NCBI GenBank assembly: GCA_951406725.2
Contig: OX597843.1
Location: forward strand, 496,001 to 560,000
Length of the DNA stretch: 64,000 bases
Direction: 5' to 3'
DNA from: Octopus vulgaris
Lineage: Eukaryota
Part shown: one piece after another, positions 10,425 to 62,825 of the stretch
Layout of the letters: each line of letters begins with the position of its first letter
Numbering within the stretch: position 1 is the stretch's first letter
Position numbers and translations under genes: made by a program
The notes under the pieces: generated by a model
What the model was told of the DNA's origin: nothing
What the model saw: the letters and a program-made list of their open reading frames with translations, nothing else
Databases searched by the model: none

Positions 10425-11010
10425 GGCGCAGGAGTGGCTGTGTGGTAAGTAGCTTGCTAACCAACCACATGGTTCCGGGTTCAGTCCCACTGTGTGACAC
10501 CTTGGGCAAGTGTCTTCTGCTATAGCCTCGGGCCGACCAATGCCTTGTGGGTGGATTTGGTAGACGGAAACTGAAAGAAGCCCGTCGTATATATGTATAT
10601 ATATATATATATAGATGTAGGAGTGGCTGCATGGTAAGTAGCTTGCTTATGAACCACATGGTTCTGGGTTCAGTCCCACTGCGTGGCATCTTGGGCAAGT
10701 GTCTTCTGCTATAGCCCCGGGCCGACCAATGCCTTGTGAGTGGATTTGGTAGACGGAAACTGAAAGAAGCCCATCGTATATATGTATATATATATATATG
10801 TATGTGTGTGTGTTTGTCCCCCTAGCATTGCTTTACAACCGATGCTGGTGTATTTACGTCCTCCGTAACTTAGCGGTTTGGCAAAAGAGACCGATAGAAT
10901 AAGTACTGGGCTTACAAAGAATAAGTTCTGGGGTCGATTTGCTCGACTATGAGGCGGTGCTCCAGCATGGCCGCAGTCAAATGACTGAAACAAGTAAAAG
11001 AGTAAAGAGA
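10425..11010 (+). mobile_element. SINE family A, duplicated head (10425, 10614) plus full body
   Basis: Two consecutive heads separated by (TA)n, then the tail. Confidence 0.9.
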
Positions 11011-17006: not shown

Positions 17007-18447
17007 GACCTCGCACATCAGCAAAGTCATGGAACGAATAGTCAGAAGAAAATTAATTACCTTCCTTGAGGAAAATGACTTGCTGACTAACACCCAACAT
17101 GGTTTTCCGACCAGGAAGACGCTGCCAGACTCAGCTCTTACAACACTATGACTGGGTGCTGAAACAACTGCTCAACCACTCAAATGTGGAAGTCATATAT
17201 CTGGACTTTGCAAAGGCTTTTGATAAAGTCAGTCATGGAATGGTATGTCACAAACTGTGCCATCTCGGTATTGTCAGAAAACTGGGAGAATGGCTTCATG
17301 ACTTTCTGAAATATATAAATCAGGAGGTAGTAGCCAATGGGGCTACCTCCAATGACACGCAAATAGTGAGCGCTGTCCCACAAGGTAGTGTTCTGGGACC
17401 ACTACTGTTCATAATGGCCTTCTCAGATATGCCCTCAGCCACACAAAGAACCACGATCACAAGTTATGCAGATGATACAAAGTCTCACAGGTGATACAGA
17501 ACCTTAAAGACACTGTGCACTTGCAATGTGAGCTGGATGAAATATACAAGTGGGCTGAAAAGAATAGCATGCAGTTCAATGCTGAAAAGTTTCAAGCCTT
17601 GTGCTATCAGCTTGCAAAACTAAATGCAATACCCAATTAAATACACTGGACCTGGAGGGATTGCAATCCCAGAGGCACAATCAGTGTGAGACCTGGGCAT
17701 GAGTAATGATGCATCCTTCTATGCGTATGTTGCTAAGTTGGCAATGAAATGCAGGCAGCTGACAGGATAGATTCTTAGAACTTTTAGAACAAGAGATCGG
17801 GAAACCATGATGGTCCTCTGAAAGACACTTGTCCTAAGCCACTTTGACTATTGCTCTCAGCTATGTTCACCAACCAGTGTCAAATTAATCACAGAACTTG
17901 AGGCAATCCAACGAAGCTACACGAAGAAGATAGCCTCTATGCAGCATTTAAGCTTCTGGGAAAGACTCAAGAGATCAAGACTCTATTGTTTAGAGCGTAG
18001 GCAAGAAAGATATGCCATAATATACATCTGGAAGATCATAGAGAAACTTGTCCCAAAATTTGGCATCGAGAGTTACACAAATATTAGAACAGGACACCAC
18101 TGCATAGTGCAAAGAACTCCAAATTTGACATCAAGATATACGACAAGATACTGCAACAGCCTGGACTTCAGGGGACCATAGATCTTCAATATTCTCCCAA
18201 AGGACCAGAGAGACCTGCATGGGGTGGATGTAGGTGTCTTCAAAATGAAATTGGACCACTTACTGTCAAGTGTCCCAGATGAACCAACTTTACATCAGGA
18301 GGTGCAGATGAGGGCAGCGGCATCAAACCCCCTCATGCACCAAATGGCAATTTCTAAAAAAGAATTAGTGAAGTAAAATTAAGTAGCAACACCAAATGGT
18401 GGTGCCCCGGCATGGCCACAGCTCATGAGCTGAAACTAGATCAAACC
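17003..18447 (+). pseudogene. 5'-truncated CR1-group LINE, ORF2 reverse transcriptase relic with 3' tail
   Basis: Motifs QHGFRPGR, YLDFAKAFDKV, VPQGSVLGPLLF, YADDTK, LYCLERRQERY; stops and frameshifts present. Confidence 0.92.
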
Positions 18448-22444: not shown

Positions 22445-22516
22445 TATATAGTAGTAGAGTGGTAAGTATCCCCGCCTGTCACGCGGGAGACCGGGGTTCG
22501 ATTCCCCGCCGGGGAG
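22445..22516 (+). pseudogene. tRNA-Asp(GTC) pseudogene lacking the 5' acceptor strand
   Basis: GTAGTAGAGTGGTAAGTATCCCCGCCTGTCACGCGGGAGACCGGGGTTCGATTCCCCGCCGGGGAG matches metazoan tRNA-Asp from position 7; positions 1-6 are TATATA; a TTTTT run follows about 8 nt downstream. Confidence 0.88.
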
Positions 22517-37659: not shown

Positions 37660-37905
37660 AGCCTGAGAAGACCTGTCAAGCCAAATGAGATCACAGCCAT
37701 GGCCGATGCTGGTGTTTTGTAACTAACGCCTGTGCCGGTGGTATGCAAGAAGCACACACTACACTCTTGGGGTGGTTGGCATTAGGGAGGGCATTCAGCT
37801 GTAGAAATCCTACCAAATCACATTGAAATCTGGTGCAGCTCCCCAGCTCACCACTTTTCAATTAAACCATCCAACCCATGCCAGCATGGAAGACAGATAT
37901 CAAAT
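37660..37905 (+). mobile_element. SINE family B 3' part, degenerate
   Basis: GTTGGCATTAGGGAGGGCATTCAGCTGTAGAAA..ACCCATGCCAGCATGG. Confidence 0.75.
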
Positions 37906-37929
37906 GGTCATATGTATGTATGTATGTAT

Positions 37930-38386
37930 CTCGAGTTGCGCATGAGAAAGTAAGGAGGGATGTCAGGAAGGGCATCGCTGTTACACTTCCAGATAGGAAA
38001 GGTCTTCCTATGATGCTGACATGCAGTGTCTGTGTGAGACCCTGCCTTAGTAAAGCTGGACGCAAGAGTCATCTTCGTAGTCATAAAGCGAGACAGATGA
38101 GTGACAACCTGGCCACTGGTGGTGGTGTTACACACCATACTAATCATATCTGTCGGGCATGTAGAAGAGGGTGTAATTCGGCAGGAGGACTTAAACGACA
38201 TGCAAAGGTACACGAAGCCCAGTTACAACTACAGCCGGCTTCTTACCGGTAAAGGTTTTAGTTGCCAATTCTGTACAAGACATTGTAGATCTTTAGCTGG
38301 GCTAAAAAGTCACATTCGATCACAGCACCAGTAACAGTTAAGCTTCGTGCAATGGCCTTACTCGATAACGAGGGGGCAGCCATCAT
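37930..38386 (+). pseudogene. 3' end of an RTE-like LINE with three C2H2 zinc fingers
   Basis: CSVC..SKAGRKSHLRSH, CRAC..SAGGLKRHAKVH and (frameshifted) CQFC..SLAGLKSHIRSQH; flanked by (TATG)n on both sides. Confidence 0.7.
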
Positions 38387-42365: not shown

Positions 42366-42978
42366 TGGAGGTACATGGCCTAGTGGTTAGAGCAGTGGAC
42401 TCAAGGTCAAGGGATTGTGGGTTCGAATCTCAACCCGGCAGATGTGTGTGTTTATGAGCGAAACACCTAATCTCCACGCGGCTCTGGCAGAAGGTAATGG
42501 CGAAACTTCTGCTGACTCTTTCGCCACAACTTTCTCTCACTCTCTCCTCCTGCATCTTGCAGCTCACCTGCGACGGACCGGCGTCCCGTCCAGGTGGGGA
42601 ACCTATACGCCAAGGAAACCAGGAAACCGGCCCTTATGAGCTTGGCATGGCTCAAGAAGGAACATTTATTTTTTTGGAGGCACATGGCCTAGTGGTTAGA
42701 GCAGCAGACTCGCGGTCGATGGATCAGGAATCGAATCTCAGACCGGGCGATGTGTGTGTACTTATGAGCGAAACACCTAAGCTCCACGTGGGTCCGGCAG
42801 AAGGTAATGGAGAACTTCTGCTGACTCTTTCGCCACAACTTTCTCTCACTCTTTCCTCCTGCATCTTGCAGCTCACCTGCGACGGACCGGCGTCCCATCC
42901 ATGTGAGGAACCTATATGCCAAGGAAACTGGGAAACCGGCCCTACGAGCCAGGCATGGCTCGAGAAGGAACAAACAAC
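42366..42978 (+). mobile_element. SINE family F head-to-tail dimer
   Basis: Two monomers of about 305 bp, TGGAGG(C)ACATGGCCTAGTGGTTAGAGC...GAAGGAACA, joined by TTTATTTTTT. Confidence 0.9.
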
Positions 42979-43128: not shown

Positions 43129-44092
43129 CCATTTAGTTACCATATTTCTGTTAACATATGCTGCCTTTGTTTCAATTTTTAAAATAATGAAGAATTTGGT
43201 AAGATAATTTTCTAATTATTAAAATGGGGCCTGGAACTATTTAGCATAAAACTTTGATGGAAGATTATAATTTAAACCACCAAAAAAAAACCCCAGTAAG
43301 TTTATGTCATGAAGGCACATGACTCAGTGATTAGAGCGTCAGGCTCACCATCATGAGGTAGTGAGTTTGATTCCTGGACTGGGCTGTGTGTTGCATTCTT
43401 GAGCAAGACATTTTATTTTCTGTAGCTCCAGTTCACTACTTAGCTGTAGAAATAAGATGCAATATCACTGATGCCAAGCTGTATCGTCCTTTGCCTTTCC
43501 TTTGAATAACATCAGTGCCATGGAGAGATGGATGGAAGCACTCCGTCGGTTACGACGACGAGGGTTCCGGTTGATCTGAATCAACGGAACAGCCTGCTCG
43601 TGAAATTAACGTGTAAGTGGCTGAGCACTCCACAGACACGTGTACCCTTAACGTAGTTCTCGGGGATATTCAGCGTGACACAGAGAGTGACAAGGCCGGC
43701 CCTTTGAAATACAGGTACAACAGAAACAGGAAGTAAGAGTGAGAGAAAGTTGTGGTGAAAGAGTACAGCAGGGATCACCACCATCCCCTGCCGGAGCCTC
43801 GTGGAGCTTTAGGTGTTTTCGCTCAATAAACACTCACAACGCCCGGTCTGGGAATCGAAACCGCGATCCTATGACCACGAGTCCGCTGCCCTAACCACTG
43901 AGCCATTGCACCTCCACGCCATGGAGAGAAGAGGCTGGTATGCATGGGTAACTACTGGTCTTCCACAAACAACTTTGCCCAGACTTGTGCCTCGGAGGGG
44001 AACTTTCTAGGTGTAATACTATGGTCATTCATGATCAAAGGGGGTCTGTATCCTTTGTCACAGAACTCTAGGGTGAGTTGGTATTAAAAGGG
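43129..44092 (+). mobile_element. Older piggyBac-type MITE interrupted by SINE D and SINE E
   Basis: TTAA-CCATTTAGTTACCA ... TGGTATTAAAAGGG-TTAA. Confidence 0.6.
43529..43917 (-). mobile_element. SINE family E (F-like head, different tail) inserted in SINE D
   Basis: 12-bp TSD GCCATGGAGAGA at 43517-43528 and 43918-43929. Confidence 0.9.
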
Positions 44093-53125: not shown

Positions 53126-55624
53126 AAGCATATAATACATGTTTATTATAAATATATTACCTTATATATATAATATATTAAACATGTATATTTATATTAT
53201 CTATATCATGTATATATATATATTATATTTTGTATACATATATATGTGTGCGCGTCATTTATATTTACTGTATGTGCATTAATTACAAATACATCTCTTT
53301 ACATATATATACACATATATAAACATAAATGCTCAGATGGGCAAAACAAGATTGTGGTGCACTGGACACATGTAGCGACATGTGGGAGAATCAATGTGTT
53401 CGTGCGACCCAGGTAATATTCGCTGCTACTCCGAGTAATACAGATAGCTGCATCCAAAAATGCTTTAAGCACCAAACACAATAAACACACTACAAATATA
53501 CACACATGTAGACATTTACATAAATATATATACACATATATATATATCACTATGTACAGGAGAGCAAAAGGCACAGATCCTTCGTGTCTTCAGATCAACA
53601 ATGTTAACCCGAAAGGAAGTCAGACCATGAAGGTGTAGCAACTATAAGTAGTTTTGAGTCCCTAAGTCAGTCCTGATTGAGCAGACCTATAATCAAAAGG
53701 CAACCCAGCCTCGACCACCCCATTGAATTTGTTTTTGTTGTGGCATAGTGCATCTAGGATTCACATTTTTCCAAGACGCATCCTTTAGTTCTTTCTTGCA
53801 TATACTTATTATTATTGTTTTAGTTACAGTTGGGTGTAGTACAGGCCGAGGGAGATTTGGCTGTTATTTCCGATTGGTCGAGTGACCACCTAAGGGCTTC
53901 CAAGATGAGACAGTTGAGCTTTGTACAGACATGTAGACACACAGACAGACAGCTGATGAAGATGGATTTTCCTGCACTCCACCACTTTGCTATGTATGCT
54001 TGCAAATGTACAATACATATATATTTGTGTGTATATAAATGTGTGTGCGTGTATGAGTGTATATAAATGTGTGTATGTGTGTATATAAATGTGTGTGTGT
54101 GATGTCCTGTTCTGTTTTTGATTAAATGTTAAAAGATTGATGGTGGTGAGTGATGGATTTCGAATGATGTTGAATTTGAAATTAGATGACGCTCTCGTCG
54201 TAATCTTCTACCGTGTTCCTTTGGCGATGATACAATATGAGATGGAGAAGATGATGACGATGATGATGATGATGACAGAAAAGAAAAGAAAATGGAAGAA
54301 TCAGAAGATGACCGTGGCAAGCATTGAATGACAATGGAAGACGAAGAATAAGAATAAGAAGAATAAGAAGAAGAATAAGAAGCAAGGAACACGAACAAGA
54401 AAGGGAGATGGAAAAACCAAAAAGGCCGATTCCGATTCACGTCGCAGCTACAAACTCGTCAAGCGTGGAAGAAGCTGCACGCACAAGCGATGCGCTTGGC
54501 GTTGCAAGAAATGGAGTAAAACGGCACAACGGGTACGACGGCGCGAGGCACCGAGGCGAATCGTGTCACACACAAAAAAAAAAACTTTAAAAAAAAATTT
54601 GATGTATATATATAAATAAAGTCAAACACATGCAAAAGACAAAAAAAAAAAAACCCAACGAAATACAACTAATTAGCAAAATTTAGTAATTAATTCTTAA
54701 TTGGTCAACCACAAAAATATAATAATAAATTGCAATCCATTCTCATAGCTATTGCTGTTGTTGTTATTGTTGTTGTTGATTTTTCAGGAGGTTTTTTTTA
54801 TGTTTTTCCTTACTTCTTTTACGCCCTTTTTGTTACAATTATTATTATTATTATTATTGTTGTTGTTGTTGATTTTTCAGGAGGTTTTTGTATGTTTTTC
54901 CTTACTTCTTTTACGTCCTTTTTGTTACAATTATTATTGTTGTTGTTGTTGTTGTTGATAATCTCCTTTGTTTTTTTTTTATATATATTTTATATTATAT
55001 ATATATTATATATATATTATATATATTTAAAGGCGGTGCTCCAGCATGGCCGCAGTCAAATGACTGAAACAAGTAAAAGAGTAAAGAGTAAAAGAGATAT
55101 TTTTGTCAATTTTCCAATCCTGGGTCCTTTTATTCCCTATTTTCTCCCCTCTTTCATCGTCTGTGGCATATAATCGCTATTGTTGTTGTTGTTATTGTCG
55201 CCGTCTTCGTTGCACTCCGTCCTGTGCAATTGTGCAATTGCACTGCACCTTCTTCGGAAAATGGTCGTTCCAGCAGGTGTTGTCCAAGGACGGACGATGG
55301 GGTGGTGGGTGTCCAAGACAAGGGGTGGGGTCCTAAACAGGTATTAAAACATCACTGCCAAAGACGGACAAAGCGGAGAGGGGGATCCGTTGTTGGTCCA
55401 ATACTCCATTAGCATCTCCGAGGCAACAGGCTGCTGCTGTCACTGCCGCTGTCGCTGTTAACAGTTGTAATTCCAGTTATAGTCTCTTATTGATATTGTT
55501 ATTGCTGCTGCTGTTGCTGCTGCTGCAGTTAATGTGTGTATATCAGTGGTGGCGGTGGTCGTGGCGACGAGGAAGGGGAGCTACGAGACACAACACCAGC
55601 TGCTGTTAACTGCAACTACTACTA

Positions 55625-56960
55625 CTGATGCTGCTGATGTTGCCGCTGCTGCTGCTGGTGGTGATTATTATAATAATAAGGATGCTGCTGCTGATCTTGC
55701 TATCATTGCTGCTGTTGATGATGATGGTGATGATTGTAATAAAGATGCTGCTGTTGTTGTTGATGGCACTGCTGCTGTTCCTATCATTGCTGCTGTTGAT
55801 GGTAACCCTGCTGATGATGATGATGATTACAACAAAGATGCTGCTGCTGTTGTTGTTGGTGCTGCTGCTCTTCCTATCATTGCTGCTGCTGATGGTGATG
55901 ATTATAATAATGATGCTGCTGTTGTTGTTGTTGGTGCTGCTGCTGTTGATGATAATCCTGCTGCTGCTGATGGTGATGGTTATAGTAAAGATGCTGCTGC
56001 TGTTGTTGTTGGCGCTGCTGCTCTTCCTATCATTGCTGCTGCTGATGGTGATGATTATAATAAAGATGCTGCTGCTGTTGTTGTTGGTGCTGCTGCTGTT
56101 GATGATAATCCCGCTGCTGCTGATGGTGATGGTTATAGTAAAGATGCTGCTGCTGTTGTTGTTGGCGCTGCTGCTCTTCCTATCATTGCTGCTGCTGATG
56201 TTGATGATTATAATAAAGATGCTGCTGCTGTTGTTGTTGGTGCTGCTGCTGTTGATGATAATCCCGCTGCTGCTGATGGTGATGGTTATAGTAAAGATGC
56301 TGCTGCTGTTGTTGTTGGTGCTGCTGCTCTTCCTATCATTGCTGCTGCTGATGGTGATGATTATAATAAAGATGCTGCTGCTGTTGTTGTTGGTGCTGCT
56401 GCTCTTCCTATCATTGCTGCTGCTGATGGTGATGATTATAATAAAGATGCTGCTGCTGTTGTTGTTGGTGCTGCTGCTGTTGATGATAATCCCGCTGCTG
56501 CTGATGGTGATGGTTATAGTAAAGATGCTGCTGCTGTTGTTGTTGGCGCTGCTGCTCTTCCTATCATTGCTGCTGCTGATGGTGATGATTATAATAAAGA
56601 TGCTGCTGCTGTTGTTGTTGGTGCTGCTGCTGTTGATGATAATCCCGCTGCTGCTGATGGTGATGGTTATAGTAAAGATGCTGCTGCTGTTGTTGTTGGC
56701 GCTGCTGCTCTTCCTATCATTGCTGCTGCTGATGGTGATGATTATAATAAAGATGCTGCTGCTGTTGTTGTTGGTGCTGCTGCTGTTGATGATAATCCTG
56801 CTGCTGCTGATGGTGATGGTTATAGTAAAGATGCTGCTGCTGTTGTTGTTGGCGCTGCTGCTCTTCCTATCATTGCTGCTGTTGATGATAATCCCACTGC
56901 TGCTGCTGCAGACGATGCTGCTAGTGACTATTATGATAAAGACATTGCTGCTGTCATTGG
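55625..56960. repeat. GCT/GTT/GAT minisatellite, 153-bp higher-order unit (78+75 bp)
   Basis: GATGATTATAATAAAGATGCT landmarks at 56050 and 56203; open in three frames. Confidence 0.92.
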
Positions 56961-57492
56961 CGCTGCTGCCGCTGTTTGTATTGCTGCAGCTGATGATGGT
57001 GATGACGATGACAACAATGACGGTGTAGTTGTTATTCCTGCTGCTGCTGTTGCTGCTGCTGTAGTCTTGGTTAAACAATGTCTGTATGTGTACAACAGGA
57101 GACGACGCCTGCAGCAGATGCCGCTGCCGCTGCTGCTAACGCTGCCTTCGATGCCGCTGACGATGATAGTGATGGTAATGATGCTACTGCTGGTGCCGTT
57201 GGTGCTGCAGTAGTCTGGTGTATGTAGAATGGGAGACAACTACAACTGCTACTACTACTAAAACTGCCACTGTTCTTATAATGATGGTGATGGTGATGGT
57301 GGTGGTGGTGGTGGTGGCGGTGTCATTGTTGCTGAGTGGCAGCAACAGAGCAGCTGGTGTTTGTTGTTGTTTGTTGCTGTTGTTGTTGTTGTTGTTGTAT
57401 GCACTGTTGCAGTCGATGTTAGCTCGCAGAGTTTGGTGGTGGTGGTCGTGGTAGGAGGAGCAGTAAAACTGACGGAAATGCAGACAAACACA

Positions 57493-58625: not shown

Positions 58626-59215
58626 GAAGACGCATGGTTCACTGGTTAGAGCGTGAGGCTCACAATCATGAGGTAGTGAGTTCAATTCCCGGACCAGGCT
58701 GTGTGTTGTGTTCTTGAGCAAGACTCTTTATTTTACATTGCTTCAGTTCATTCAGCTGTAGAATTGAGTTGCGACATCACTGGTGCCAAGCTGTATCGGC
58801 CCCTTTGCCTTTCCCTTGATAACATCAGTGGCATGGAGAGGAGGAGGCTGGTATGCATGGGCGACTGCAAGGCAGCGAGCTGGCAGAAACATTAGCAGGC
58901 TGGGCGAAATGCTTAGCAGTATTTTGTCTGCCGCTACGTTCTGAGTTCAAATTCCGCCGAGGTCGACTTTGCCTTTCATCCTTTCGGGGTCGATTAAATA
59001 AGTACCAGTTACGCACTGGGGTCGATATAATCGACTTAATCCGTTTGTCTGTCCTTTGTCCCCTCTGTGTTTAGCCCCTTGTGGGTAGTAAAGAAATAGG
59101 TATGCATGGGCGACTGCTGGTCTTCCATAAACAACCTTGCCCAGACCTGTGCCTTGCAGGGGAACTTGCTCGGTGCAATCCCATGGTCGTGAATGACCAA
59201 AGAGAATTTTTACTC
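58626..59215 (+). mobile_element. SINE family D with a nested SINE family C (58869-59098)
   Basis: 19-bp TSD GGTATGCATGGGCGACTGC at 58850-58868 and 59099-59117. Confidence 0.9.
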
Positions 59216-59357
59216 CTCATCGTTTCTTCTCCATCTCCGGGGCTAGTTGACTTTGCAAAGTGGCTTAGAGTCCGACTCTCTCAGGTAGACTGAATGTGAA
59301 CCTGGGCACCAAAAGTCTTTCTGTGTGTGTGCATATGTAATCATCCTCCTCGTCATC

Positions 59358-62300
59358 GTGGAGGCACATGGCCTAGTGGTTAGAGCAGCGGACTCGCGGT
59401 CGAGGGATCGCAGGTTCGAATCTCAGACCGAGCGATGTGTGTGTTTATGAGCGAAAACACCTAAGCTCCACGCGGCTCCGGCAGAAGATAATGGTGAACT
59501 TCTACCAGTTAGTAGTGGTTAGAGCAGCAGACTCGCGGTCGAGGGATCGCAGGTTCGAATCTCAGACCGAGCGATGTGTGTGTTTATGAGCGAAAACACC
59601 TAAGCTCCACGCGGCTCCGGCAGAAGATAATGGTGAACTTCTACCAGTTAGTGGAGGCACATGGCCTAGTGGTTAGAGCAGCGGACTCGCGGTCGAGGGA
59701 TCGCAGGTTCGAATCTCAGACCGAGCGATGTGTGTGTTTATGAGCGAAAACACCTAAGCTCCACGCGGCTCCGGCAGAAGATAATGGTGAACTTCTACCA
59801 GTTAGTGGAGGCACATGGCCTAGTGGTTAGAGCAGCGGACTCGCGGTCGAGGGATCGCAGGTTCGAATCTCAGACCGAGCGATGTGTGTGTTTATGAGCG
59901 AAAACACCTAAGCTCCACGCGGCTCCGGCAGAAGATAATGGTGAACTTCTACCAGTTAGTGGAGGCACATGGCCTAGTGGTTAGAGCAGCGGACTCGCGG
60001 TCGAGGGATCGCAGGTTCGAATCTCAGACCGAGCGATGTGTGTGTTTATGAGCGAAAACACCTAAGCTCCACGCGGCTCCGGCAGAAGGTAATGGTGAAC
60101 TTCTACCAGTTAGTGGAGGCACATGGCCTAGTGGTTAGAGCAGCAGACTCGCGGTCGAGGGATCGCAGGTTCGAATCTCAGACCGAGCGATGTGTGTGTT
60201 TATGAGCGAAAACACCTAAGCTCCACGCGGCTCCGGCAGAAGGTAATGGTGAACTTCTACCAGTTAGTGGAGGCACATGGCCTAGTGGTTAGAGCAGCGG
60301 ACTCGCGGTCGAGGGATCGCAGGTTCGAATCTCAGACCGAGCGATGTGTGTGTTTATGAGCGAAAACACCTAAGCTCCACGCGGCTCCGGCAGAAGGTAA
60401 TGGTGAACTTCTACCAGTTATGGAGGCACATGGCCTAGTGGTTAGAGCAGCGGACTCGCGGTCGAGGGATCGCAGGTTCGAATCTCAGACCGAGCGATGT
60501 GTGTGTTTATGAGCGAAAACACCTAAGCTCCACGCGGCTCCGGCAGAAGGTAATGGTGAACTTCTACCAGTTAGTGGAGGCACATGGCCTAGTGGTTAGA
60601 GCAGCAGACTCGCGGTCGAGGGATCGCAGGTTCGAATCTCAGACCGAGCGATGTGTGCGTTTATGAGCGAAAACACCTAAGCTCCTCGCGGCTCCGGCAG
60701 AAGATAATGGTGAACTTCTACCAGTTAGTGGAGGCACATGGCCTAGTGGTTAGAGCAGCAGACTCGCGGTCGAGGGATCGCAGGTTCGAATCTCAGACCG
60801 AGCGATGTGTGCGTTTATGAGCGAAAACACCTAAGCTCCTCGCGGCTCCGGCAGAAGATAATGGTGAACTTCTACCAGTTAGTGGAGGCACATGGCCTAG
60901 TGGTTAGAGCAGCAGACTCGCGGTCGAGGGATCGCAAGTTCGAATCTCAGACCGAGCGATGTGTGTGTTTATGAGCGAAAACACCTAAGCTCCTCGCGGC
61001 TCCGGCAGAAGATAATGGTGAACTTCTACCAGTTAGTGGAGGCACATGGCCTAGTGGTTAGAGCAGCAGACTCGCGGTCGAGGGATCATGCAGGTTCGAA
61101 TCTCAGACCGAGCGATGTGTGTGTTTATGAGCGAAAACACCTAAGCTCCACGCGGCTCCGGCAGAAGGTAATGGTGAACTTCTACCAGTTAGTGGAGGCA
61201 CATGGCCTAGTGGTTAGAGCAGCAGACTCGCGGTCGAGGGATCGCAGGTTCGAATCTCAGACCGAGCGATGTGTGTGTTTATGAGCGAAAACACCTAAGC
61301 TCCACGCGGCTCCGGCAGAAGATAATGGTGAACTTCTACCAGTTAGTGGAGTCACATGGCCTAGTGGTTAGAGCAGCAGACTCGCGGTCGAGGGATCGCA
61401 GGTTCGAATCTCAGACCGAGCGATGTGTGTGTTTATGAGCGAAAACACCTAAGCTCCTCGCGGCTCCGGCAGAAGATAATGGTGAACTTCTACCAGTTAG
61501 TGGAGTCACATGGCCTAGTGGTTAGAGCAGCAGACTCGCGGTCGAGGGATCGCGGGTTCGAATCTCAGACCGGGCGATGTGTGTGTTTATGAGCGAAAAC
61601 ACCTAAGCTCCTCGCGGCTCCGGCAGAAGATAATGGTGAACTTCTACCAGTTAGTGGAGTCACATGGCCTAGTGGTTAGAGCAGCAGACTCGCAGTCGAG
61701 GGATCGCGGGTTCGAATCTCAGACCGGGCGATGTGTGTGTTTATGAGCGAAAACACCTAAGCTCCTCGCGGCTCCGGCAGAAGATAATGGTGAACTTCTA
61801 CCAGTTAGTGGAGGCACATGGCCTAGTGGTTAGAGCAGCAGACTCGCGGTCGAGGGATCGCAGGTTCGAATCTCAGACCGAGCTATGTGTGTGTTTATGA
61901 GCGAAAACACCTAAGCTCCTCGCGGCTCCGGCAGAAGATAATGGTGAACTTCTACCAGTTAGTGGAGGCACATGGCCTAGTGGTTAGAGCAGCAGACTCG
62001 CGGTCGAGGGATCGCGGGTTCGAATCTCAGACCGGGCGATGTGTGTGTTTATGAGCGAAAACACCTAAGCTCCTCGTGGCTCCGACAGAAGGTAATGGCG
62101 AAACTTCTGCTGACTCTTTCGCCACAACTTTCTCTCACTCTTTCCTCCTGCATCTTGCAGCTCACCTGCGATGGACCAGTGTCCCGTCCAGGTGGGGGAC
62201 CTATACGCCAAGAAACCGGGAAACCAGCCCTTATGCGCCTGGCATGGCTCGAGAAGGAACATTTATTTTTGTGGAGGCACATGGCCTAGTGGTTAGAGCA

Positions 62301-62553
62301 GCGGACTCGCATCGAGGGATCGCGGGTTCGAATCTCAGACCGGCCGATGTGTGTGTTTATGAGCGAAAACACCTAAGCTCCACGCGGCTCCGGCAGAAGG
62401 TAATGGTGAGACTTCTGCTGACTCTTTCACCCCACAACTTTCTCTCACTTTTTCCTCCTGAACCTTGCAGCTCGCCTGCGACAGACCAGTGTCCCGTCCA
62501 GGTGGGGAACCTATACGCCAAGGAAACCGGCTCGAGAAGGAACAAACAACATC
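59358..62553 (+). repeat. Tandem array of 17 SINE-F head units (154 bp) followed by a full SINE-F dimer
   Basis: Unit starts at 59358, 59512 (139 bp), 59651, 59805, 59959, 60113, 60267, 60421, 60574, 60728, 60882, 61036, 61192, 61346, 61500, 61654, 61808; full monomers at 61962 and 62271; A box TGGCCTAGTGG and B box GGTTCGAATC. Confidence 0.95.
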
Positions 62554-62825
62554 AACAATCCTCCTCCTCTTCTACCTCCTCCTCCTCATCATCATCCTTT
62601 AATGATCTCTTTCCATACTGGCATGGGTTGGACAGTTTGACCAGAACTGGGAAGCAAGGAGAGTTACACTAGGTTCCAGTCTGTTTATGTCCCTTTCAAT
62701 TAGCGGTTTGGCAAAAAGTGACCAACAGGGGCATTTGAACTCAGAAATACCGCTAAAGCATTTCACCCGGCTTGCTAATGATTCTGCCAGCCCACCACCT
62801 TAATAATGATAATAATAATAATAAT

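Follow-up and report, generated by a model that had tools for sequence, protein, structure and literature searches.

How does a tandem array of promoter-bearing SINE heads come into being in an octopus genome, and is such an array peculiar to its site? The locus that raises this question lies in a stretch of 64,000 nt from Octopus vulgaris (hereafter the window), which corresponds to positions 496001-560000 of contig C30 (OX597843.1). This contig measures 21.2 Mb, that is 0.76% of the 2.8-Gb assembly, and the array sits 0.56 Mb from its start. A first-pass annotation, made from the letters alone, had described 18 tRNA-like Pol III promoters with a single distal terminator, and had offered three readings: a nascent SINE-derived satellite, a SINE source locus, or a TFIIIC insulator upstream of host promoters.

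Architecture and local growth of the array

Together with its putative flanking duplications, the array occupies window positions 59343-62572, with all its features on the plus strand. As had been claimed, seventeen head units (59358-61961), each made of SINE positions 1-146 and an 8-nt linker, run into a full monomer. The count of seventeen is as read in the assembled sequence; the first linker (module A) lies at 59504-59511, and from there on the 17 linkers are spaced by 154 nt, except for steps of 139 (unit 2), 153 (unit 8) and 156 nt (unit 12). Unit 2 (59512-59650) carries a 15-nt deletion that takes out the 5' half of its A box. The full monomer, number 18 (61962-62260), consists of a SINE body that carries the end of a sister element, SINE X, marked by T at position 278 (278T). 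It is followed by a monomer-monomer joint (module B, 62261-62270), which is the (ATTT)n tail of SINE X and contains the first T5 run, and then by a second monomer with a full head and a deletion in its 3' part (62271-62543). An AAAC/AAC-type tail like that of dispersed copies (62544-62557) and a degenerate target-site duplication (TSD) come only after this second monomer. The two putative TSDs (59343-59357 and 62558-62572) were read from the sequence and are uncertain: the left one is of low complexity and identical to the right one at 13 of 15 positions, and the best partner returned by our script was a different low-complexity stretch nearby.

Going by A- and B-box motif patterns, the A box is present in 18 of 19 units, being absent from unit 2, and the B-box core in all 19, with the preceding G missing in unit 11; the earlier description of both boxes is thereby confirmed. 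On the plus strand, no run of four or more T occurs from 59212 to 62265, again in agreement with that description, and T5 runs are found at 62266-62270 and 62449-62453. The proposed layout of 18 promoters and one terminator is correct in that the first such run comes only after monomer 18, but it had overlooked the 19th promoter-bearing monomer, which begins right after T5.

The majority sequence of 29 loci describes a parent SINE of about 298 nt that starts with GTGG, ends with GAAGGAAC plus AAAC repeats, and is flanked by TSDs of 10-20 bp; by inspection, TSDs and AAAC tails are present in most of these loci. Its exact 3' 20-mer occurs 4005 times genome-wide, a count that also takes in a sister SINE with an identical 3' end, and the element is dispersed over all large contigs. 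It is thus a short, dispersed, high-copy sequence with TSDs, a simple-repeat tail and a tRNA-like head with A and B boxes, as expected of a SINE. The 39 best non-self relatives of the 3' half of monomer 18 lie on 23 contigs, and none of them on C30. SINE X shares positions 203-298 (the 96-nt 3' end) with the parent SINE, is marked by 278T and has an (ATTT)n tail. Ohshima and Okada reportedly described the tRNA-derived octopus SINEs OK, OR1 and OR2 in 1994; their tRNA-like head with A and B boxes resembles that of our element, which may be OR1 or OR2. In the accessible text of one source, OR2 is classed as a CORE SINE (PMC4758252).

Neither ARAGORN nor the Rfam tRNA model called the SINE head, and the whole window, like 22 neighbouring stretches of 10 kb, is free of tRNA calls by ARAGORN. 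The array unit was assigned to no Rfam family, its one miRNA match lying below threshold (E=0.2), and Rfam reported no ribozyme at gathering score in the window or at E<=5 in the monomers; an uncurated ribozyme could escape this search. The predicted fold of the majority sequence and of a unit contains a long hairpin and a stem pairing positions 1-6 with 108-113, and no cloverleaf. An acceptor-like stem pairing the 5' end with the linker was rejected, being unsupported by folding.

Other SINE-related sequences are found in the window and beyond. A dimer of the array's parent SINE with a module-B-type joint lies 17 kb upstream of the array (42366-42971, plus strand). A further relative, seen at 43727-43906 (minus strand) and in 32 census hits, matches positions 1-185 at 75-84% identity, has two other 3' ends, and outnumbers the array's parent SINE in the census. 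The window also contains a 189-nt dimer of another tRNA-like SINE (10430-10799, 93% match) and an Rfam tRNA match (22451-22509, plus strand; 39.9 bits, model positions 7-64, GTC anticodon loop) on which ARAGORN was silent and which is probably a truncated tRNA-Asp copy. Genome-wide, heterodimers of SINE X and the parent SINE are joined through the (ATTT)n tail of X, in varied lengths, at 20 loci on 13 contigs and at two more, perhaps as a result of a template jump or of tail insertion. At C4:174764824-174766991, five matches to the X 3' end, spaced by multiples of 102 nt, probably represent a tail-derived SINE satellite.

The mean pairwise distance among the 16 full heads is 2.0%, and it climbs with separation, from 1.1% between neighbours to about 3.1% at 12-14 units. 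Since units 2% apart become more distant with separation, the array likely grew in place, as the idea of a nascent satellite amplified stepwise had implied. The variant blocks on which this idea was based follow the claimed pattern, except that GGTAATG, assigned to units 5-8, also occurs in unit 12, and that CTCCTCG, assigned mostly to the units from 9 on, is missing from units 12-13. Moreover, units 15-16 and monomer 18 have two linked bases in common, a sign of exchange inside the locus. The locus also shows the marks of a SINE satellite (sSat): the tandem unit (positions 1-146 of 298 plus the linker) is shorter than the dispersed SINE, at least four middle monomers are followed by a longer terminal unit that reaches the SINE end (17 heads, then full monomers), and the units are closer to one another than to the heads of the sister loci described below (5.5-8.3%). 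From these sequence comparisons, the array is very probably a locally expanded SINE satellite.

In a run labelled as another species, one contig extends from the left flank into the head; over 224 nt it shows 16 substitutions and 4 gap letters, a divergence indicating that the insertion is old. The CpGs had been described as well preserved; indeed, the array heads have lost just 2.6 of 14, but this is nothing special, as dispersed copies have lost 3.7 of 14 (24 copies). Special protection is therefore unnecessary, and the retention stems from the SINE itself. Head arrays with different joints are present on C20 (4 heads), C23 (3) and C29 (up to 8), so that head arrays arise repeatedly; the 17-unit array is the longest one found. 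Taken alone, it is an ordinary SINE-derived satellite, new for a cephalopod within the literature searched.

A family of joints on one contig

The array is not unique: its head-linker joint belongs to a C30-restricted family that the first-pass annotation had not noticed. With up to two mismatches, the linker pattern has 36 matches genome-wide. All 34 matches with at most one mismatch fall on C30, at nine loci including the array (0.56, 0.69, 0.76, 0.78, 1.02, 1.04, 2.30, 3.10 and 8.16 Mb); the two matches off C30 carry two mismatches, and a reversed-pattern control gives three. The probability of eight extra C30 loci arising by chance is P<=1e-8, even with C30 holding 4-10% of the copies. A genome search for the junction, which had been suggested as a check, thus returned the exact form in the array only (15 of 15 matches) and a form with one changed base at the eight other C30 loci. 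As the exact junction is confined to the array, the array has left no daughters; with sister loci as distant as stated above and no daughters carrying its diagnostic bases, it does not behave as a SINE source locus.

No homology between abutting flanks was found among the nine linker loci. The whole multimer is bracketed by one exact TSD of 11-17 bp or more at three of the nine according to our script, and at two more by eye; three loci are without a TSD, two of them being 5'-truncated, and the TSD of the array itself is the degenerate one. The modules occur in several combinations: A with B at the array, A with an ATT joint at 1036k and 2302k, A with module D at 694k, and A alone at five loci. 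The post-linker monomers differ at the 249 indel, which is present in three, absent from four and deleted in two. The sister array at C30:1019-1021 kb is organised as a higher-order repeat into which 103 nt of its left flank have been incorporated, which is direct evidence of DNA-level duplication in place.

The linker had been called non-SINE, but it is probably SINE-derived. At one sister locus, CAGTCA comes directly after body position 148, and its last five bases, AGTCA, are the reverse complement of body 149-153; the linker would then consist of body 147-148 and an inverted copy of body 149-153. Inverted body bases after position 148 suggest a templated repair insertion, for which a 5-nt match found post hoc is modest evidence.

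Monomer-monomer joints cluster by chromosome as well, while ordinary copies spread genome-wide. Among the 95 exact monomer-head joints listed, 34 are on C30. The ATT joint, with 18 cases at 11 loci among the 95 listed and two further loci, is found on C30 exclusively, and so is the T5 joint of the array (module B), at four loci. Off C30, the upstream unit was of X type in all 20 ATTT joints fetched, and joint lengths varied. On C30, the ATTT joints follow SINE bodies to which X contributes no more than its final part (278T, often 289A), which points to one founder; the founder's 278T is missing from about half of the pre-joint units on this contig. Two other interpretations were rejected: ATTT joints do not mark where Pol III once terminated in a master gene, since they are the (ATTT)n tail of SINE X, and 278T is not a priming block, since it occurs 360 times genome-wide and marks SINE X.

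Joints are shared on other contigs too. One joint on C28 is a copy of the TSD found at its origin locus. It turns up again at three other C28 loci and one on C29; the outer TSDs of these recurrences are exact in two cases, carry a mismatch in one and were not found in one. Clusters on C27 (three loci), C29 (17.3-17.9 Mb) and C31 were rejected as independent cases because they are segmental duplicates; these, together with one divergent relative, were excluded from the locus-pair scores. The segmental duplications carrying SINE multimers on C31, C27 and C29 (three loci each) have abutting flanks 81-99.8% identical. On C30 itself, arrays of six to seven near-full monomers within one TSD are present at 1331 kb and 15850 kb.

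Routes of spread and possible function

We propose that the array expanded in place within one old insertion and that the joint spread among resident C30 copies by intrachromosomal ectopic gene conversion, a scenario that we consider evenly poised between right and wrong. It starts from the tRNA-like SINE of about 298 nt, whose copies, each with TSDs and an AAAC tail, are spread across all large contigs. A repair event on one C30 copy would have duplicated the head and left a short inverted insertion, the linker; separately, one copy would have been joined to the tail of SINE X. Breaks in nearby resident copies may then have been repaired on these multimers by synthesis-dependent strand annealing. 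Such repair would add a unit and its joint between the recipient's own TSDs, and the modules would gather in differing combinations. Finally, unequal exchange or slippage very probably enlarged the head to 17 units at the array locus. According to the accessible part of the source, the spread of Rsp-like into 1.688 clusters is a precedent for homology-seeded spread along one chromosome (PMC7403614).

The main competing route is local retrotransposition, in which terminator-free multimers are read through by Pol III, their RNA is reverse transcribed near the source, and the array then grows in place. We see this as possible but on the unlikely side, and we say the same of a variant in which switching onto multimer RNA occurs during insertion, with a bias to the chromosome territory of the source. 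Multimers that sit in their own TSD with their own tail suit local retrotransposition, but a TSD around a multimer fits either the insertion of a multimer RNA or a resident copy extended between its old TSDs. The two most widespread joints (linker A and ATT) are without a T4 run, as read-through would have it, yet module B contains a T5 and has reached its four C30 loci nonetheless. Moreover, the family's ordinary copies are found on every large contig; a single source predicts uniform downstream monomers, whereas those observed are mixed; and the four module combinations require several recombinant sources. The zone shows no clear excess of loci over the controls (8 in 484 kb against 8 in 600 kb), which argues weakly against local retrotransposition; multimers make up six of the eight zone loci and two of the eight control loci, in a census that is underpowered (P=0.20 for too few unmarked loci, P=0.13 for the share of multimers). 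With moderate confidence, and as far as sequence comparison can tell, conversion would be favoured over retrotransposition because the family spreads in trans, its modules combine freely, and its post-linker monomers are of mixed subfamily.

Several observations nevertheless count against conversion. The first units of C30:1758k and C30:7638k have 14 variants in common, spread over positions 7 to 289. At 780k and 1020k, the shared variants begin at head position 43 and extend as far as monomer position 282, the 3' pair being a common subfamily state. Such near end-to-end sharing in two locus pairs speaks for local retrotransposition, as do the 5' truncation of two loci and a pair of X-SINE heterodimers on C5 that lie 1.2 Mb apart and share the joint and variants in both units, but not the outer flanks. 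Head joints resume at the SINE 5' end or within a few bases of it, a point against conversion for which the search pattern itself partly selects. Furthermore, with 278T missing from about half of the pre-joint units on C30, conversion needs later overwriting or clustered breaks.

A haplotype search yielded no monomer daughters, its matches being the two known loci only. Among public contigs, two from run X12, which we guessed to be RNA, are 52 and 58 nt long and identical to the array-specific joint, with a depth of 5-6; the pieces are short and do not satisfy a 31-nt bridging rule. An RNA origin of these contigs would favour local retrotransposition, but with a run only guessed to be RNA and pieces this short, they support the existence of the joint, not its transcription. 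Runs X3 and X18 gave no junction-crossing piece among the eight listed for each, and none of the runs listed is on record as RNA. The unique flank was not covered in three runs, an outcome that carries no weight in either direction.

A related proposal is cis retrotransposition of a tRNA-derived SINE, in which terminator-free arrays would give rise to read-through multimer RNAs that are captured and inserted in the chromosome territory of their source (0.1-25 Mb away), with a new TSD each time; we regard it as doubtful. Improbable, in our view, is a route through circular DNA, in which multimer circles excised from arrays would re-integrate by homologous recombination into nearby resident SINEs. 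This route, proposed for Rsp-like in the accessible text of PMC7403614, matches conversion in accounting for the TSDs of the recipients, the mixing of modules and the bias towards one chromosome; against it, most sister loci gained just one or two units.

The possibility that a functional cluster of Pol III promoters, either a TFIIIC boundary or a multimeric RNA gene, has been kept by selection seems to us very improbable. The retained A boxes and B-box cores (18 and 19 of 19), the T4-free 2.9 kb and the hint of the joint in one RNA-guessed run would fit it. However, intact promoters follow from the recent copying of one unit, the unit without an A box persists, CpG loss resembles that of dispersed copies, no tRNA fold is called, and comparable head arrays have independent origins on C20, C23 and C29. 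Nor was a host gene found nearby when 28 ORFs were compared with Pfam, a search that a gene with short exons could escape; the only match above cut-off was a reverse transcriptase fragment, the others being weak zinc-finger and low-complexity hits. The nearest translated long ORF, 2 kb off (55609-57135), is a simple-repeat array, and the proposed TFIIIC insulator upstream of host promoters thus has no support from these searches. The reverse transcriptase fragment lies at 17087-17491 (plus strand; PF00078, E=5.5e-15) and a weak single C2H2 zinc-finger match at 37866-38249 (plus strand; E=2.5e-4), and the stretch 55600-57140 is a compound tandem repeat of trinucleotide runs that creates spurious long ORFs on both strands. 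Altogether, the array is most likely without a selected function; read-through Pol III transcription into an RNA ladder is possible, judging from its promoters and T runs.

Least probable of all is the independent self-insertion of new SINEs into old heads at a fixed site, or else an assembly stutter, given that no displaced SINE body lies behind the last monomer at the nine linker loci, that independent events would not share one linker or one contig, that the units differ in ordered blocks, and that the joint is present in public contigs.

Known systems and meaning of the joints

The closest likeness is offered by the sSats of squamates, for example sSat2Gja1 and sSat3Gja2 (Vassetzky et al. 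2023, PMC10702118). In the accessible text, their units span the head and part of the body and, at about 140-150 nt, are shorter than the SINE; some contain a short additional segment, and the terminal unit is longer, extending to the SINE end. There are several loci per genome, the long ones being more uniform, and a subtelomeric tendency is described, to be compared with our array at 0.56 Mb from the contig start. The octopus case differs in that it comes from a mollusc, its joint is confined to one contig, and its sister loci keep individual TSDs; the same text reports neither a TSD analysis nor a chromosome-restricted joint. Among molluscs, the TSD-(SINE)n-TSD loci of Scapharca broughtonii are SINE multimers of 4-15 units within one TSD pair (Martelossi et al. 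2024, PMC11481361, in the part accessible). The inner units of the clam are truncated at both ends and headless, whereas each octopus unit keeps its promoter, and spread between loci is not described in that part.

The Rsp-like repeats that entered 1.688 on the X of the Drosophila simulans clade (Sproul et al. 2020, PMC7403614) resemble our family in another respect: one founding junction is found at many loci of one chromosome. As far as the accessible text goes, the recipients are pre-existing homologous repeats, and interlocus conversion or circular DNA is proposed. There, a satellite entered a satellite, whereas the octopus recipients would be dispersed retroposons with their own TSDs that gained a promoter-bearing unit. 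The multimeric B2 and Dip SINEs of rodents (PMC8466645) are likewise head-to-tail homo- and heteromultimers whose origin the authors leave open; they differ in having full-length units joined via A-tails, and the accessible text describes no head-only arrays or chromosome-bound joints. The accessible portion of a preprint on L1 transduction does not address source-proximal insertion (10.1101/2024.08.27.596794). Finally, we found no description of chromosome-restricted SINE joints in the literature searched, mostly the main text of open-access papers.

The part of these results that deserves follow-up is the chromosome-bound family of joints, which act as natural tags. What the tagged joints show is a spread of SINE multimers within a single chromosome, between sites that each have a TSD of their own. 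If conversion is the true route, the joints would allow ectopic repair events between dispersed retroposons to be counted over megabases, and a multimer within one TSD would be no proof that it was inserted as a multimer. If local retrotransposition is true instead, the assumed independence of SINE insertion from the position of the source would be challenged and, should it operate in cis, junction-tagged SINE lineages would be chromosome-specific and would seed satellites locally.
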